A stretch of 62,132 nt of DNA, filler included. It is 7 parts of 7 records of this genome, joined end to end, with 100 filler letters (N's around TTAATTAATTAA, not from the genome) between each part and the next. Parts side by side here need not be neighbours in the genome. Positions count along the whole stretch, not along the records: positions 1 to 11,999 come from SRR20825010_2845; 6 more parts are not named here. One strand, 5' to 3'. Below, in pieces: positions 1,207 to 7,007 of this stretch. Every line of letters starts with the position of its first letter. Position 1 is the first letter of the stretch. A program made the position numbers and the translations under genes. Under the pieces are notes generated by a model that saw only the letters and a list, made by a program, of their open reading frames with translations, ran no database searches and was not told where the DNA came from.

Positions 1207-1240
1207 AAAGGAGCGAGTGTCATACTCGCTCCTTTTTTTT
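1207..1240 (+). terminator. Intrinsic terminator of secDF
   Basis: GGAGCGAGT-gtcat-ACTCGCTCC hairpin followed by T8. Confidence 0.9.
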
Positions 1241-1328
1241 GCCTTATCGCAGATAAAATCCTTATCTTTTGGGGAATAATTTCTACAAGTTAATTCCATT
1301 ACACTAAATTTTATAAATATACTTTTCT

Positions 1329-1730
1329 ATGAAAATATCTAAAGAAGACTTCGAAGAGATGAAAGCGAAGTATGACAATGAAGTTAAAAAAGGCAAGCCA
1401 GGCAAAGGAAAGAATGGCAAAGACAAGGATAACCAGACCGGCTGGATATTTTTTGACAGGGCTACCTTGGAAAATTTATTGGCCAAATCTGACAACGATC
1501 CCAGTGTTGGTGGAATTCAATTTTATTTCACGCAGTACACCGAAGAAACTGCAGCAAAAGCATATCCTAATGAAGCGGCTGCCTATACAGGTCAGATGAC
1601 CTTAGTGATGCGGGCTGCAAATCTGAAGGATAATAAATTTGTGAAAATTGAATTAGGAGGAGAGGATGAATACCAAAATAATGGAGTTCAATGTCCGTAT
1701 CACTGTGAACCAGAACCTACTGATACTTAA
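1329..1730 (+). CDS. Small soluble hypothetical protein with C-terminal NGxxCPxxC motif; candidate signal-peptide precursor
   Basis: 133-aa ORF with ATG start, no signal peptide or TM segment, ends EDEYQNNGVQCPYHCEPEPTDT; first gene of a tightly packed cassette. Confidence 0.85.
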   Translation: MKISKEDFEEMKAKYDNEVKKGKPGKGKNGKDKDNQTGWIFFDRATLENLLAKSDNDPSVGGIQFYFTQYTEETAAKAYPNEAAAYTGQMTLVMRAANLKDNKFVKIELGGEDEYQNNGVQCPYHCEPEPTDT

Positions 1731-1732
1731 AA

Positions 1733-2518
1733 ATGGAGGCTAGATTTTTCGAAGCGTTTCTAATGCCGTATTTGGTTGTATTAGATACACTTTCATTAAC
1801 TGGAATCATCTATTTCTACATGTTGCCAAAGGAACAAAAAGCCAATACTAGTTATTGGCTTCCTTTGGTAATATTATTATTTACATGTTTTTTTGAAAAC
1901 ATGGGGGCCTATTGCAATTACAACACAGCATTCAATAAGGAAGTAAATGCTTTCTTTGGGAACACTGAGAATCCTAGATACAATCTGTGGTTGTACAACA
2001 TTGCCAACAAGCAAATCAGTACAATATTGTACCTGTTTTTAATAAAATCCTGGCTTAAACCCTCTAAAAAGAAATACATCAACTGGATGCTTGTGGTTTT
2101 TATAAGTGTCGCTTTTTATTTTCAAATCGCTGGTATAGAGCCTATTTATTCATTTCAGCCTATCATATTTGCAATAGGCGCGAATATGATGGTTATAGGC
2201 ATCGGACTTTATTTCATTGGGCTGATCACTGATGAAGCATTTCTAAATTCTAATCCGGTAAAGTTGATCTCCTTTTGGCAAATGACATTTCTGTTATTTA
2301 CCTATTCTTTATCCTACATTAATTCCATTGCATTGGAATTTTTTCTAACATTTAATGAAAATTTAGGCAGGTCTCTTTTACAAATTGATATTGTAATGGG
2401 GGTTTTAACTAAGATTATTCTTGTGCTTACACTAGTGTCACCAAACTTCCCGAAACTATTTGAGAGAGAGCCCTCCTCTATTGATAATAAAAACCTAGAG
2501 GGATTGATAGTTAGGTAA
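1733..2518 (+). CDS. Hypothetical ~7-TM membrane protein, paralog 1 (candidate stand-alone sensor)
   Basis: About seven hydrophobic segments by eye; 2-nt gap from the upstream ORF; clear similarity to 2521..3288. Confidence 0.85.
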   Translation: MEARFFEAFLMPYLVVLDTLSLTGIIYFYMLPKEQKANTSYWLPLVILLFTCFFENMGAYCNYNTAFNKEVNAFFGNTENPRYNLWLYNIANKQISTILYLFLIKSWLKPSKKKYINWMLVVFISVAFYFQIAGIEPIYSFQPIIFAIGANMMVIGIGLYFIGLITDEAFLNSNPVKLISFWQMTFLLFTYSLSYINSIALEFFLTFNENLGRSLLQIDIVMGVLTKIILVLTLVSPNFPKLFEREPSSIDNKNLEGLIVR

Positions 2519-2520
2519 AC

Positions 2521-3288
2521 ATGGATGAACGATTAATAAGGGCTTTATTTACAGCCTATCCTCTGAATACATTTCCACTATATCTGCTTCAGATCATAGG
2601 TGTCATTTGTTTTATTAAGCTGCCAAGAGAAAAAAAAGCAAATATTCATTATTTGCTTCCTTTTTTTATCTTGAGTTTTACTTTTTTTTATGAAACCTTG
2701 GGAGCGTACTTGAACTATAATCATGAACTCAAGTATGCAATAAATGCCTACTTGGGGAACACAGTATATCCAAAGTTCAATCTTTTCCTCTTTAATATAG
2801 CAAACAGGCAGATAGGTACCATACTATACTTAATTCTGATTAAGTCCTGGTTGCACCCTTCCAAAAAGAAATACATTACCTGGATGATTTATATATTCAT
2901 AGTCTTGGCATTAATTCTTCAAATTACTGGAATGGAACTCCTCTATTTGCAACAGCCTATTATTTTTAGCATTGGAGCAAATATGATACTAATTGCGAGT
3001 GGCATTTATTTCACAGGGCTGATGACACATAAAGCCTACTTAGATAGAAATCCTCTAAAACTGCTTTCATTTTGGCAGGTGACGAGTATGTTGTTCACCT
3101 ACACCTTAACATACATCAGTTCGGTGTCCTTAATTTATCTCTATGAAGTGAATCCAGTTTTAGGAAGAGCACTTTCGAATATTAATACTGTGATGACAAT
3201 TATCACTTTGGGAGTTTTAACGTTGATTATCGCCTCCCCGCTGCTACCTAATACCTTTGAAAAAGAACCTTTCTATGAATCCAACTGA
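2521..3288 (+). CDS. Hypothetical ~7-TM membrane protein, paralog 2
   Basis: Shares NIANxQIxTILYLxLIKSWLxPSKKKYIxWM, QPIIFxIGANM and NPxKLxSFWQ with 1733..2518. Confidence 0.85.
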   Translation: MDERLIRALFTAYPLNTFPLYLLQIIGVICFIKLPREKKANIHYLLPFFILSFTFFYETLGAYLNYNHELKYAINAYLGNTVYPKFNLFLFNIANRQIGTILYLILIKSWLHPSKKKYITWMIYIFIVLALILQITGMELLYLQQPIIFSIGANMILIASGIYFTGLMTHKAYLDRNPLKLLSFWQVTSMLFTYTLTYISSVSLIYLYEVNPVLGRALSNINTVMTIITLGVLTLIIASPLLPNTFEKEPFYESN

Positions 3289-4030
3289 AGATCAGATTTA
3301 CGTCATTATTTTTAGTACTCTTTTTTTAGGAGGCTTAATGTCCACCTTTGTGGTAGCAATGGTTTTTATCCACCGTCAGCGCCAAGCTCAAAATCGCCTG
3401 AAAATGGATCAGGTTAAGTCTGAGCATGAGAAGACTTTGCTGAATATTGAAAATGAGATCCAACAAGAAACCCTGACTCATATAGGTAGGGAGCTTCACG
3501 ACAATATTGGTCAGTTACTTTCGCTCGCCAAGCTCAATTTTGGATCAATAAAACCTGAAAAAATAGCCGAAGGAAGAGACATACTAGGTCAGGCAATACA
3601 AGAAGTACGTGGCTTGTCCAAGCAATTAAATCTAGATTGGGTGGAGTCCATCAGCATCAATGAATTCATCGAACAACAGTTGGAAAGAATACAGAATACA
3701 GGTTTTTGTCAGACTTCTCTGGAAGCAGATTTTGAACTTATAGAATTGCCTAAGGATCAAAAACTGGTGTTGATCCGTGTCATTCAAGAATCACTCAATA
3801 ATGCGATTAAGCATGCTTTTCCCGATAAGATCCAGATCAGGTTGCATGAAAATGGGATGAGAAAACAAATCTTAATCAAAGACAACGGTAAGGGATTTGA
3901 CTCATCTCAAAAATTAAATGGCAGTGGAATGTTCAATCTCAAGAAGAGAATGGAAACTATCGGCGGCGAATTTCACCTGACTTCAGCAGTCGGAAAAGGA
4001 ACAGAAATAACTTTAACCTTGCCAAATTAG
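3275..4030 (+). CDS. HisKA_3-type histidine kinase with one TM helix and no sensor domain
   Basis: H-box RELHDNIGQLL, N-box QESLNNAIKHA, G-boxes DNGKGF and GSGM; ATG at 3275 overlaps the upstream gene by 14 nt. Confidence 0.95.
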   Translation: MNPTEDQIYVIIFSTLFLGGLMSTFVVAMVFIHRQRQAQNRLKMDQVKSEHEKTLLNIENEIQQETLTHIGRELHDNIGQLLSLAKLNFGSIKPEKIAEGRDILGQAIQEVRGLSKQLNLDWVESISINEFIEQQLERIQNTGFCQTSLEADFELIELPKDQKLVLIRVIQESLNNAIKHAFPDKIQIRLHENGMRKQILIKDNGKGFDSSQKLNGSGMFNLKKRMETIGGEFHLTSAVGKGTEITLTLPN

Positions 4031-4079
4031 ATTTTAGGGTATAATTTGAAGTTTAATCTCCCCAAATTATTAACCTTAA

Positions 4080-4712
4080 ATGCGCATGATCAGGATTGCC
4101 CTGGCTGACGACCACAAGCTATTTGCAAAAGGAATAGAAGGAATTCTAGAAGATGAGGATGACCTACTCGTCGTTGGTGTCTTTCCAAACGGAAGAGAGC
4201 TTTGTGATTACTTAGCAGATAATGAGATTGATATAGTCCTCACTGACCTTAACATGCCTATTATGGATGGTTTTGGCGTGTTAGATCATTGCAAAGAAGC
4301 ACACCCACATTTGAAGGTTGTTGTTCTCTCCATGTATGATGAGGAAAAAATTTACAAAAAATGCATCAATCAAAAAGCCGATGCTTTTATACTCAAAGAC
4401 GCTGATCCAGATGAATTGATATTTACCATTCATGAAGTTTATGAAGGTAGACACGTTTTGAATTTTGATCGAGTCAAAAAACAAGCTTTGCAAGGCGCCT
4501 ATTTTGACGCATTTCGAATGAAGTATAAACTTTCCCGCCGTGAAACAGAAATCATCCAACTAATCCGGGAAGGAATTCAAAACAAAAGTATCGCTGAAAT
4601 GCTTAATCTAAGCAAACAGACCGTCGAAACGCATCGTAAAAATATCCACCAGAAACTTCAAGTTAGTTCTCGAATTGAGCTAGTGAACAAGGCACATGAA
4701 ATGAACTTATAA
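4080..4712 (+). CDS. NarL/LuxR-family response regulator
   Basis: REC domain (ADDH, DLNMP, LSM, K) plus LuxR HTH LSRRETEII...TVETHRKNI. Confidence 0.96.
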   Translation: MRMIRIALADDHKLFAKGIEGILEDEDDLLVVGVFPNGRELCDYLADNEIDIVLTDLNMPIMDGFGVLDHCKEAHPHLKVVVLSMYDEEKIYKKCINQKADAFILKDADPDELIFTIHEVYEGRHVLNFDRVKKQALQGAYFDAFRMKYKLSRRETEIIQLIREGIQNKSIAEMLNLSKQTVETHRKNIHQKLQVSSRIELVNKAHEMNL

Positions 4713-4714
4713 TT

Positions 4715-5761
4715 ATGAGCAATCCCATTAAGACAGCCATCGTAGGCTTCGGTTCTGTAGCTGAAAAAATGCATGCACCCCTGATAGCAGTATGTCCAGA
4801 CCTTGATCTGGTAGCATCAGTGGAACGTCGCACTAATCGTTGCGAAGAGATATATTCTGGAGTAACTACATACAGAAGCTTAGATGAATTGCTTGCTGCA
4901 GAGGTGGCTGAGCTCATCGTGATCACCACCCCAAATGAGTTTCACTTCCCTATGGCAATGCAGTGCTTGAATGCTGGAAAGCATGTGGTGGTAGATAAGC
5001 CGGTCACGATTTTCTCTCATGAAGCCGAAGAGCTAAATAAGCTAGCTAGTGAGAAAGGCTTGGTTTGTTCTGTCTTTCACAACCGTCGATACGATGGGGA
5101 TTTCATGACCTTGCAAAAGTTGGTTCGAGAAGGAGATCTTGGAGATCTCGTATATCTGGAATCTCATTTTGACCGCTTCCGTCCAGATGTTTCGGAGAAT
5201 TGGAGAGAAAAGGAAGTCCCTGGCAATGGTATCACCTATGATCTTGGGGCTCATTTGATCGATCAAGTAGTATTGCTTTTTGGTCTACCAAACTGGATTC
5301 AGGCGGACATCCGCAAGCAAAGAACTGGTGCTGTGGCTGACGATTACTTTGACATTACCATGGACTACGGCACTCTTAAAGCTAAGGTGACCGCAGGAGC
5401 TTTAGTGAATGTACCTACTCCAAAGTTTTTGCTTTTGGGTAAAAATGGATCTTACCAAAAGTTCGGTTTGGATGTACAAGAAGCAGAGTTCAAGCTGGGA
5501 CATAAGCCAGAAGGCGCAAGTTGGGGTGTGGAAACTGAGGAGAAGTGGGGGAAAATTTTCCTCAGTGAGGAAACGAAAGCTTATGAGACCATCCCAGGAA
5601 ATTACAGAATTCTATACCAAAATGTCGCAGATGCTATTTCAAAAGGCACTTCACTAGACATCACCATTCCACAGACCATCAGCGTTTTGAAGATTATAGA
5701 GGCATCTTTTAAAAGTGCAGAAGAGAAACGCACCATTTCAAAAGCAGAAGGAAATTGGTAA
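4715..5761 (+). CDS. Gfo/Idh/MocA oxidoreductase (YhhX/YdgJ/IolW-like)
   Basis: IVGFG Rossmann start, HVVVDKP, FHNRRYDGDF, YDLGAHLIDQ. Confidence 0.92.
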   Translation: MSNPIKTAIVGFGSVAEKMHAPLIAVCPDLDLVASVERRTNRCEEIYSGVTTYRSLDELLAAEVAELIVITTPNEFHFPMAMQCLNAGKHVVVDKPVTIFSHEAEELNKLASEKGLVCSVFHNRRYDGDFMTLQKLVREGDLGDLVYLESHFDRFRPDVSENWREKEVPGNGITYDLGAHLIDQVVLLFGLPNWIQADIRKQRTGAVADDYFDITMDYGTLKAKVTAGALVNVPTPKFLLLGKNGSYQKFGLDVQEAEFKLGHKPEGASWGVETEEKWGKIFLSEETKAYETIPGNYRILYQNVADAISKGTSLDITIPQTISVLKIIEASFKSAEEKRTISKAEGNW

Positions 5762-5766
5762 TAATT

Positions 5767-5774
5767 TAAGTTTG
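5767..5774 (+). promoter_or_regulatory. Bacteroidota -7 promoter element
   Basis: TAAGTTTG matches TAnnTTTG, 42 nt upstream of the ATG at 5817. Confidence 0.5.
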
Positions 5775-5816
5775 GCTCTTTTTTGGGGTAAGGGATTAGA
5801 AATAATTAAATCCACC

Positions 5817-6254
5817 ATGAAAAAAGTATTCTTATTAGCATTTGCTCTTTTTGCTTTTATATCGATTTCTCAAGCTCAAGTAGCTGTAGGTATCAACTTC
5901 CAGAGTTCTGATACTTTTATCACCGTAGGAACTGACCCGAACAATGAATTCTTCGGAGAAGCTAGACTGGGCATCGGCCACGACATCGGGCTAGAATTGA
6001 TGGGAGCCTATAATTTCGTTAGAAAAAGTGAAGTGAATGCCTACGTAGGCGCAGGTCTGGGCTTATTAGGAGATCATCATCACAAGCACCATGATGACCA
6101 CAACGATATTTACGTGGCAATTCCAATAGGCGTATTGATTACTCCATTTAATACTAAAAACTTGGGCTTTTTAGTAGAAGCCGCACCGGTATTTGCAAAT
6201 CACAATGACAGTTACCTCAGAGGCGGTGTCGGCGTGAAATATACCTTTAGATAG
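5817..6254 (+). CDS. Small outer-membrane beta-barrel protein with a His-rich loop
   Basis: Signal peptide MKKVFLLAFALFAFISISQA, alternating beta strands, C-terminal GVKYTF(R), loop DHHHKHHDDHND. Confidence 0.75.
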   Translation: MKKVFLLAFALFAFISISQAQVAVGINFQSSDTFITVGTDPNNEFFGEARLGIGHDIGLELMGAYNFVRKSEVNAYVGAGLGLLGDHHHKHHDDHNDIYVAIPIGVLITPFNTKNLGFLVEAAPVFANHNDSYLRGGVGVKYTFR

Positions 6255-6269
6255 ATCAAATTTACCATT

Positions 6270-6316
6270 AACCCAAAAAATGTCAACTCAGTTATTGAGT
6301 TGACATTTTTTGGGTT
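6270..6316. terminator. Bidirectional terminator between convergent genes
   Basis: Perfect 21-bp inverted repeat AACCCAAAAAATGTCAACTCA with a 5-nt loop. Confidence 0.85.
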
Positions 6317-6326
6317 TAAGCTTTTT

Positions 6327-7007
6327 TTACTTATTGTTTAGGAAAAAAGAAACTCCCAGATAGATTGCTGAGGTATTTAAACCAAACTCAAAAGAATTAT
6401 TACTGTAGTCTGCAATGGTGGTTTCTTGGTTGGAGCTTGTAAAAGTCGCAAGATTAGTAGACAGCTCTATTGCCATCCAATTTTTAGGGAAGTAAGCGAT
6501 TCCTGCTAAAAGTCTGGTCTCATACTCAGTGTAGTTGACCTCATTTTCTGAAGGACTGCCATTATTATATTCATACATGGACGTATTTTTATTTTTCAGC
6601 GCCCCACTATTTAACTCCCCAAATGCTGAAAATTTATCACCAAATGGAAAATACTTTCTAGCAAACAAGCCTGCACCAAATGCATTTTGCTCATTGGTAA
6701 GTCTTTCCTTACTAGAGTTTGTGCTGCTGTAAGTGGTAGCATCCATTATACTTTTACCAGTTTTAAATCTAACCATAGCACCTATAACCCAATTATTTTC
6801 CAAGGCAACACCAACCTTAGGGTCAAAGGAGAACTCATTGGATGTCGTATTTCTATCACTGCCTAAATCCGAAGTCCTTTGCTGATCATTATTGCTATTA
6901 GCGAAGTTGATGCTTCCACCGAGCAAAACACTGCCTTTTTGTATCTGAGCAATTGCTGCAAAAGTGAAGCACTGAAACACGAGTAATACAAGTAATAATC
7001 TTTTCAT
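6327..7007 (-). CDS. Outer-membrane beta-barrel protein
   Basis: Signal peptide, QIQKGSVLLGGS start typical of Bacteroidota barrels, C-terminal LGVSFFL. Confidence 0.8.
   Translation of the reverse strand: MKRLLLVLLVFQCFTFAAIAQIQKGSVLLGGSINFANSNNDQQRTSDLGSDRNTTSNEFSFDPKVGVALENNWVIGAMVRFKTGKSIMDATTYSSTNSSKERLTNEQNAFGAGLFARKYFPFGDKFSAFGELNSGALKNKNTSMYEYNNGSPSENEVNYTEYETRLLAGIAYFPKNWMAIELSTNLATFTSSNQETTIADYSNNSFEFGLNTSAIYLGVSFFLNNK

Follow-up and report, generated by a model that had tools for sequence, protein, structure and literature searches.

How does a histidine kinase with almost nothing outside the membrane and no input domain come to sense anything? The question is raised by a locus at positions 1329 to 4712 of the window (the whole stretch of DNA that was analyzed, 62,132 nucleotides (nt) in length), where the genes for such a kinase and for a NarL/LuxR-type response regulator follow those for a 133-amino acid (aa) soluble protein, here called A, and for two paralogous seven-helix membrane proteins, B1 and B2. 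An earlier note on this DNA had taken these genes for a peptide-signaling operon. We found that A-B-kinase(-regulator) is a real, conserved and unnamed signaling cassette of Bacteroidota. We consider it probable, though only somewhat so, that the cassette is a two-component system dependent on accessory proteins, in effect a sensor of three or four components, in the manner of LiaFSR or SaePQRS. The features of the locus, including six open reading frames (ORFs), are as follows.

1207..1235, plus strand: terminator-like hairpin with a 13-pair stem (6 GC pairs) followed by a T run; end of the secDF unit and upstream boundary of the cassette
1261..1287, plus strand: promoter-like element CTTATCTTTTGGGGAATAATTTCTACA, 42-68 nt upstream of the A start codon
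1329..1730, plus strand: A, 133 aa, ORF for a soluble protein of an unnamed family, with a conserved N-terminal domain, a variable linker and an invariant tail
1733..2518, plus strand: B1, 261 aa, stand-alone seven-helix membrane protein of an unnamed family, from the ORF and a structure model
2521..3288, plus strand: B2, 255 aa, paralogue of B1; the 3' end of the ORF is overlapped by the kinase start
3275..4030, plus strand: sensor-less histidine kinase, 251 aa from the ATG, with HisKA_3 and HATPase_c domains and one transmembrane (TM) helix
4080..4712, plus strand: NarL/LuxR-type response regulator, 210 aa, with a REC (Response_reg) domain and a GerE helix-turn-helix
4715..5761, plus strand: Gfo/Idh/MocA oxidoreductase, 348 aa, PRK11579-like (E 4.9e-98)

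All six ORFs are co-oriented on the plus strand downstream of the hairpin. A is separated from B1, and B1 from B2, by 2 nt; B2 and the kinase overlap by 14 nt, and 49 nt lie between the kinase and the regulator. A TTG at 3257 is an alternative open start for the kinase, with which the overlap would be 32 nt, and the ATG at 3275 is favored because the kinase N-terminus MNPTEDQIYVIIF is conserved in relatives. The earlier note had described five co-oriented genes with these spacings past the secDF terminator, and the coordinates and the hairpin agree with it; its description of the products (a 133-aa protein with a cysteine-motif tail, two paralogues of about 7 TM helices, a one-TM HisKA_3 kinase and a NarL regulator) was likewise borne out by Pfam, by the 51% identity of B1 and B2 (E 2e-88) and by the structure model.

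The kinase and the regulator have the domain content of a NarL/LuxR-type two-component pair (HisKA_3 with REC-GerE). In Pfam scans the kinase matched HisKA_3 (E 5e-6, 27.4 bits, cut-off 24) and HATPase_c (E 6.6e-14, 52.7 bits, cut-off 26.4), and the regulator matched Response_reg (E 2.1e-23, 83.1 bits, cut-off 30.2) and GerE (E 5.1e-18, 64.9 bits, cut-off 23.5). No NCBIfam equivalog reached its cut-off for the window ORFs; the kinase did match the LiaS model at E 2.1e-15, under the cut-off of that model. A single hydrophobic segment (residues 10-28) is preceded by about 9 residues outside the membrane and followed by a linker of about 40 residues, HisKA_3 and HATPase_c, and there is no input domain. 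Such a minimal extracytoplasmic part without an input domain is the make-up of an accessory-dependent kinase. Mean pairwise protein distances, computed over 28 loci, were 0.41 for B, 0.32 for A, 0.28 for kinase residues 71 to the end, 0.23 for the regulator, 0.22 for the oxidoreductase, 0.14 for the kinase TM helix and 0.10 for secDF. No part of the kinase is more conserved than the TM helix, and this helix appears to be more than a mere anchor because an anchor would not be expected to be so constrained relative to the rest of the kinase and to B.

We scanned a genome collection with the B alignment and obtained 40 loci, most of them titled Algoriphagus and four titled with other or broader taxa. 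The order secDF-A-B(n)-kinase-regulator-oxidoreductase was present in all 40 loci and in the window wherever the contig reaches. In these Algoriphagus-type loci, the kinase adjoining the regulator was overlapped by the preceding B ORF wherever both were present (longest ORFs). Three loci (L015, L036 and L039) place an Algoriphagus-type cassette in metagenome bins titled Planctomycetota or Limnohabitans; these contigs were probably mis-binned because their flanking genes are 58-90% identical to those of Algoriphagus. In the search of the window's family, B was detected in 16 of 201 genomes and 13 of 132 genera, and A, B, kinase and regulator occurred together in all 13 loci from other genera of the family, with secDF adjoining in 9.

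The arrangement extends beyond the family. Among 401 sampled Bacteroidota genomes, A was found in 17 with a first profile and in 43 (24 of 179 genera) with a broader one. All but one weak hit of the broader profile fell in families of the same class, with 17 of 28 genomes in one family. The first search gave 13 loci from other families, and in 12 of them A was followed by a multi-helix ORF of 137-231 aa and then by a one-helix kinase of about 260 aa, the contig of the thirteenth stopping short; 11 of the 13 also yielded a regulator match. By hhalign, these distant membrane ORFs share homology with B over 169 columns (probability 93.4%, E 2.6e-7). In the best 29 loci of the broader-profile search, some of which are shared with these 13, A had B next to it on its own strand in all 29 and the kinase came next in 26; the other 3 run out of the 1.5-kb flank. 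The full order was also present in 8 of 10 further loci chosen for longer forms of A. B lay directly upstream of the kinase in all loci examined except two that are kinase-less (L129 and L131), and the kinase start preceded the end of B by 11-44 nt in 19 of the 20 class-level loci holding both (first-ATG ORFs).

In almost all of the loci examined, then, homologues of A and B accompany a NarL regulator and a HisKA_3 kinase of one helix, and the earlier note, which had made such co-occurrence a test of its reading, is not refuted on this count. Its view that the module is dedicated and undescribed also stands: the module is conserved, A and B belong to no Pfam or NCBIfam family, and full-text literature searches, with subscription journals and supplements outside their scope, returned no description of the cassette.

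B is a protein in its own right. Scans of the six window ORFs matched A, B1 and B2 to no Pfam or NCBIfam family, and searches with B returned 96 homologues. A B profile run against 1.84 billion (1.84e9) representatives gave 41 hits, all of them 265 aa or shorter, and no form fused to a kinase. HisKA_7TM (PF16927) was matched by 0 of 25 close B members, 0 of 10 distant members and neither window copy at E values up to 1, and none of these proteins belongs to any other seven-transmembrane (7TM) Pfam family. The claim that the sensor is split from the kinase is upheld to the extent that the kinase itself lacks a sensor and that B occurs in no fusion with it. AlphaFold modeled B1 with seven long helices, at a predicted local distance difference test score (pLDDT) of 90.4. 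Lysine and arginine (K/R) counts on the model helices put the C-terminus and loops 1, 3 and 5 on the inner side for 29 of 32 B proteins (the other 3 were ties), and an N-out, C-in topology is predicted because the odd loops and the C-terminus are the richer in K/R. Foldseek of the B1 model against the PDB returned nothing at E of 0.001 or lower, the weak top rows being rhodopsins and G protein-coupled receptors (GPCRs). In VIA-align, designed GPCR-like folds, GPCRs and microbial rhodopsins scored Z values between 13.6 and 10.7. Scores of 12-14 are reachable by helical bundles without common ancestry; the model is read as a GPCR/rhodopsin-like bundle arrangement and not as homology. The Per1-type 7TM hydrolase group requires a conserved His and Asp. 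B1 did match Per1 in Pfam (E 0.0049, under the cut-off, as in 6 of 25 members), but this candidate was dismissed as chance, the family alignment of B holding no invariant Cys or His.

A homologues numbered 128 at E of 0.001 or lower, and the named ones came nearly all from Algoriphagus records. Many bear the source name "molecular chaperone DnaK", just as some B homologues are named "histidine kinase" by their sources and one public record calls a B homologue "Histidine kinase N-terminal 7TM region domain". Neither HSP70 nor any other family was detectable in A by Pfam and NCBIfam scans. The names DnaK (for A) and histidine kinase (for B) look to have been propagated in error, because no Pfam or NCBIfam match backs either. 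In alignments, A opens with about 95 aa of conserved domain and closes with an invariant tail, the two joined by a linker that varies in both length and sequence. The tail is C-P-Y-H-C in the window; all 24 of the aligned relatives share C122, P123 and C126. In the wider family the tail reads N-x-G-x-x-C-P-P-x-C, or in general form N-x-G-x-x-C-P-x-x-C.

We collected 60 distinct A homologues from the fetched loci as the sample for counts of tails and N-termini. C-P-x-x-C was present in 31, and 26 retain the P-P part alone without the cysteine pair. The window A has no hydrophobic segment, signal peptide or leader. The N-terminus was not hydrophobic in 42 of the 60, including every Cyclobacteriaceae copy seen, and carried a lipoprotein-type signal or a TM segment in 18. 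Two lipoprotein forms of 316-321 aa (L132:4340-5290 and L133:4706-5671) gave two separate matches each to the A-domain profile, which suggests, on the sequence, an internal domain duplication. Structural comparison of A was uninformative. The model was poor (pLDDT 61), and Foldseek found nothing below E 1.4 in the PDB with a model too poor to inform; the A profile reached a best E of 0.68 against PDB sequences, and the 30 nearest ESM Atlas clusters shared no Pfam family for A, nor did those for B. A complex prediction for B1 with A scored 0.00 in two runs, with the controls not folded, and counts neither for nor against a contact.

The copy number of A and B varies among the Algoriphagus-type loci. 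Counted as ORF matches, fragments included, the 41 loci (the 40 and the window) hold 1-3 A and 1-7 B ORFs each. One A, one B and one kinase ORF were found in 13 loci; one A, two B and one kinase, the window type, in 14; and two A, two B and one kinase in 5. The other 9 loci had other combinations, with up to 3 A ORFs, 7 B ORFs or 2 kinases, and clear gene fragments occur in L030, L040, L006 and L021, among others. A promoter-like element is conserved upstream of the A genes across loci, second A copies included. Of 50 regions upstream of A, 29 have its core, TTA[TA]CTTTT, for the most part at -59 to -67 from the ATG. The element occurs once in the 62-kb window (1261-1287), compared to 0 expected by shuffling, and may act there as a promoter or operator.

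All of the cassette genes are under purifying selection. The ratio of nonsynonymous to synonymous substitution (dN/dS) was 0.07-0.14 for A, 0.07-0.24 for A and B together and 0.01-0.10 for the other genes, and A and B are taken to be functional genes because of these values. The synonymous distances (dS) of the same genes tell of separate histories. Between the window and L002, dS was 0.35 for A and 0.33 for B1, compared to 1.10 for secDF, 2.80 for the regulator and 2.27 for the oxidoreductase. Likewise, L014 and L020 differed by 0.20 in A and 0.26 in B1, compared to 1.16 to 3.16 in the other genes. The pattern was reversed between the window and L016, which is titled as the same species as a locus identical to the window: dS was 2.20 for A and saturated for B, and 0.45 to 0.76 for the flanks and the kinase. 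Because the dS of A and B and that of the other genes disagree in both directions, the A-B unit has been exchanged between lineages independently of the kinase, the regulator and the flanks. Exchange was also surveyed at the protein level, in 852 unit pairs. A and B travel as one polymorphic unit, but its tail motif is invariant, and plain linkage of adjacent genes could account for the co-inheritance.

Domain content, a conserved gene order, the absence of fused forms, the pattern of selection and the exchange of cassettes are what was observed; from them we infer the following contacts, direction of information flow, signal and regulon for an accessory-protein-dependent system. B would dock on the conserved TM helix of the kinase within the membrane and would be the actual sensor or a co-sensor, responding to a cue that may be membrane- or envelope-borne. 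B would be made together with the kinase, given that the last B gene runs past the start codon of the kinase. A would bind B, or the B-kinase complex, via its invariant tail and modulate signaling. The phosphorylated NarL-type regulator would control transcription, with targets that probably include the promoter-like element of the cassette itself. In this genus, the A-B units would be interchangeable input modules, subject to tandem duplication, decay and exchange while one kinase-regulator pair is retained. A split sensor is the most economical reading because the sensor-less kinase has just one helix and nine outside residues to report with, because B is its constant and never-fused neighbor, and because the TM helix is the most constrained part of the kinase.

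Known systems offer partial parallels to this arrangement. LiaS is of the HisKA_3 class and LiaR of the NarL class, and LiaFSR and VraTSR of Firmicutes resemble the cassette in that a NarL-type regulator and a minimal-sensing HisKA_3-class kinase are encoded alongside a conserved accessory protein of the membrane, which in their case controls the kinase. LiaS has two TM helices and a HAMP domain, and classical accessory-dependent intramembrane-sensing kinases in general have two TM helices. The cassette kinase, with one, may be a variant of the intramembrane-sensing type. The accessory protein LiaF is reported to act on LiaS and LiaR (PMC3543457). In contrast to LiaF, B has seven helices and no detectable similarity to it (no Pfam hit). 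The cassette further differs in having an extra soluble or lipoprotein partner, A, in belonging to Bacteroidota, and in the amplification of its A-B units and their exchange between lineages.

A second parallel is SaePQRS of Staphylococcus aureus, which likewise has four genes for a small protein, a membrane protein, an intramembrane-sensing kinase and a regulator. SaeR, however, is an OmpR-type regulator and not a NarL-type one, and the gene order is saePQRS compared to A-B-kinase-regulator. PMC5083920 describes the lipoprotein SaeP and the membrane protein SaeQ as forming a ternary complex with SaeS that switches on its phosphatase activity, and as being themselves under Sae control. The likeness to SaeP is found in the lipoprotein A forms of other Bacteroidota, whereas the window A has no lipoprotein signal; SaeQ has four helices compared to seven in B, SaeP is unrelated to A, and no family is held in common. 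A and B showed no homology to LiaF, SaeP or SaeQ by Pfam or NCBIfam, and the A profile matched nothing in the PDB below E 0.68. We therefore regard the cassette as a probable functional analogue of LiaFSR and SaePQRS and not as a member of either family. A third system, 7TMR-DISM/HisKA_7TM (PF16927), also associates a seven-helix membrane module with a histidine kinase, but B does not match PF16927 and no fused form was found.

Several observations weigh against an accessory-dependent system. Co-variation of B with the kinase helix was considered as evidence and dropped: the partial Mantel correlation fell from r 0.64 to r 0.10 after removal of four divergent loci, and there is no signal of co-evolution within the genus because the higher value rests on those four. 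The location of A is inconsistent across the family, as the 42 signal-less forms and the 18 lipoprotein-type or TM forms attest, yet the predicted topology of B is identical beside both. Either A acts on different faces of the membrane by lineage, or the signal-less forms exit by an unknown route. L129 and L131, from two genera of another family, carry A-B with neither kinase nor regulator in the surrounding 5 kb or so, and A-B is thus able to exist apart from the kinase; their A-B(-B) units stand in similar gene contexts. In the other genera of the window's family, an overlap of B and the kinase was present in just 2 of 13 loci (ATG-only ORFs), the separation being mostly 4-190 nt and 932 nt in one locus. 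Finally, the promoter-like element that A copies carry would also suit A and B as regulated outputs.

In the alternative that survives best, which we judge possible but unlikely, A and B are the regulated output of the system, a stress-induced soluble and membrane effector pair, and the kinase senses the membrane via its own helix. In the lia system, liaIH is encoded upstream of liaGFSR. The separate promoter-like element of the A copies, second copies included, fits an output, as do the amplification and exchange of A-B units independently of the kinase and the kinase-less L129 and L131. Activated LiaR, moreover, induces the lia locus (PMC3543457). However, A-B-kinase order and strand are retained class-wide, and a kinase start within the end of B in 19 of 20 class-level loci argues for matched production, which would be unusual for an effector and a regulator. 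The kinase itself has about 9 outside residues and one helix, and the helix is its most conserved part. Output and input are not exclusive, in any case: PMC5083920 presents SaePQ as both targets and modulators of SaeRS.

Another scenario, which we think quite improbable, treats A and B as polymorphic specificity pairs, in which a GPCR-like B would recognize its cognate A, and the invariant tail N-x-G-x-x-C-P-P-x-C would serve as a tethered plug or ligand. The specificity regions of agr and com are polymorphic and are exchanged against a conserved kinase core and regulator, and specificity pairs are suggested because the polymorphic, exchangeable signal-side region of the cassette resembles those loci. 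The variable parts of A and B would then set the choice of partner, several pairs could feed one generic kinase via its conserved TM helix, and the exchange of A-B alleles could reflect diversifying selection for self/non-self or strain-specific signal recognition.

That A is the primary sensor, with C-P-x-x-C reporting redox state or binding a metal or cluster while B merely tethers A to the kinase, is very doubtful. The motif has its attractions: C122, P123 and C126 are invariant in every one of the 24 close relatives, C-P-x-x-C recurs in 31 of 60 family members across the class, and the missing export signal of Algoriphagus A would keep the thiols in the reducing cytoplasm. However, cysteine chemistry is not the general mechanism of the family because 26 of the 60 homologues are P-P only, without a cysteine pair. 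In addition, no known redox or metal-binding domain was matched, and the model of A is poor.

The proposal of the earlier note was quorum sensing by a peptide or protein, with a secreted signal from the A tail and B as its receptor. ComP and ComA share the kinase and regulator classes of the cassette. ComQXPA and Agr also have a polytopic membrane sensor and a polymorphic signal-side region beside a conserved kinase core and regulator, much as A-B is polymorphic and exchanged while the regulator and flanks have a different history. The GPCR/rhodopsin-like model of B (best Z 13.6) and the export of some distant A relatives as lipoproteins could be counted on the same side. However, Z scores of this size are attainable without shared ancestry, and the exported relatives are lipid-anchored, not diffusible. 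With 133 aa, about 95 of them in a conserved domain, A is unlike a short ligand precursor, and it has no signal peptide or leader in the genus or in any Cyclobacteriaceae copy seen. The cassette has no short exported precursor and no processing gene of the ComQ, AgrB or ABC-C39 type, and no protease, exporter or modifying-enzyme family was matched among the six window ORFs in Pfam or NCBIfam. AgrB-like processing needs Cys and His, neither of which is invariant in B. The sensor of ComQXPA, Agr and ComCDE is part of the kinase polypeptide, whereas B is separate, and the "signal" motif of A is invariant and its linker variable, the reverse of a specificity-determining signal. For all of these reasons quorum sensing is highly improbable here, and neither the analogy to peptide quorum systems nor the role of A as a ligand precursor was sustained.

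The genes around the cassette were also recorded. The oxidoreductase is the sixth co-oriented gene and begins 2 nt past the regulator. The gap between the two was -4 to +15 nt in 36 of 38 loci holding both (292 nt in L039; 9 in L013), and because this junction is tight in nearly all Algoriphagus-type loci, the oxidoreductase may be co-transcribed with, or controlled by, the cassette. Elsewhere in the window's family it was present in 4 of 13 loci from other genera, and it had no match in the 13 loci from other families; it is not a member of the cassette outside the window's family. Beyond it, two convergent small ORFs with signal-peptide-like N-termini lie at 5715-6254 (plus strand, 179 aa) and 6327-7007 (minus strand, 226 aa), with a 20-pair terminator-like palindrome at 6270-6316 between them. 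The first of these ORFs is syntenic with the cassette in most Algoriphagus loci. In three loci of one genus (L087, L088 and L095), the cassette stands beside a 125-aa ORF and a four-helix ORF of 647-668 aa, and also beside a membrane pair of 302 aa and 265 aa.

Kinases without a sensor of their own rely on partner proteins, and the well-studied published cases that we found, Lia and Sae, are from Firmicutes. The locus points to a probable accessory-protein-dependent two-component system built from two unnamed families, with tandem amplification and independent exchange of its A-B units. The cassette would add a widespread Bacteroidota solution drawn from those families, the GPCR-like B and the proline-rich, often cysteine-tailed A. 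Naming and testing the two families would annotate many "hypothetical" genes and correct names such as "molecular chaperone DnaK" and "histidine kinase". The Algoriphagus locus amounts to a natural experiment in which input modules have been duplicated and swapped while the kinase is fixed, and would give a handle on the specificity of sensing. Were the specificity pairs to prove true, they would amount to a form of protein-based recognition with no described counterpart in Bacteroidota.

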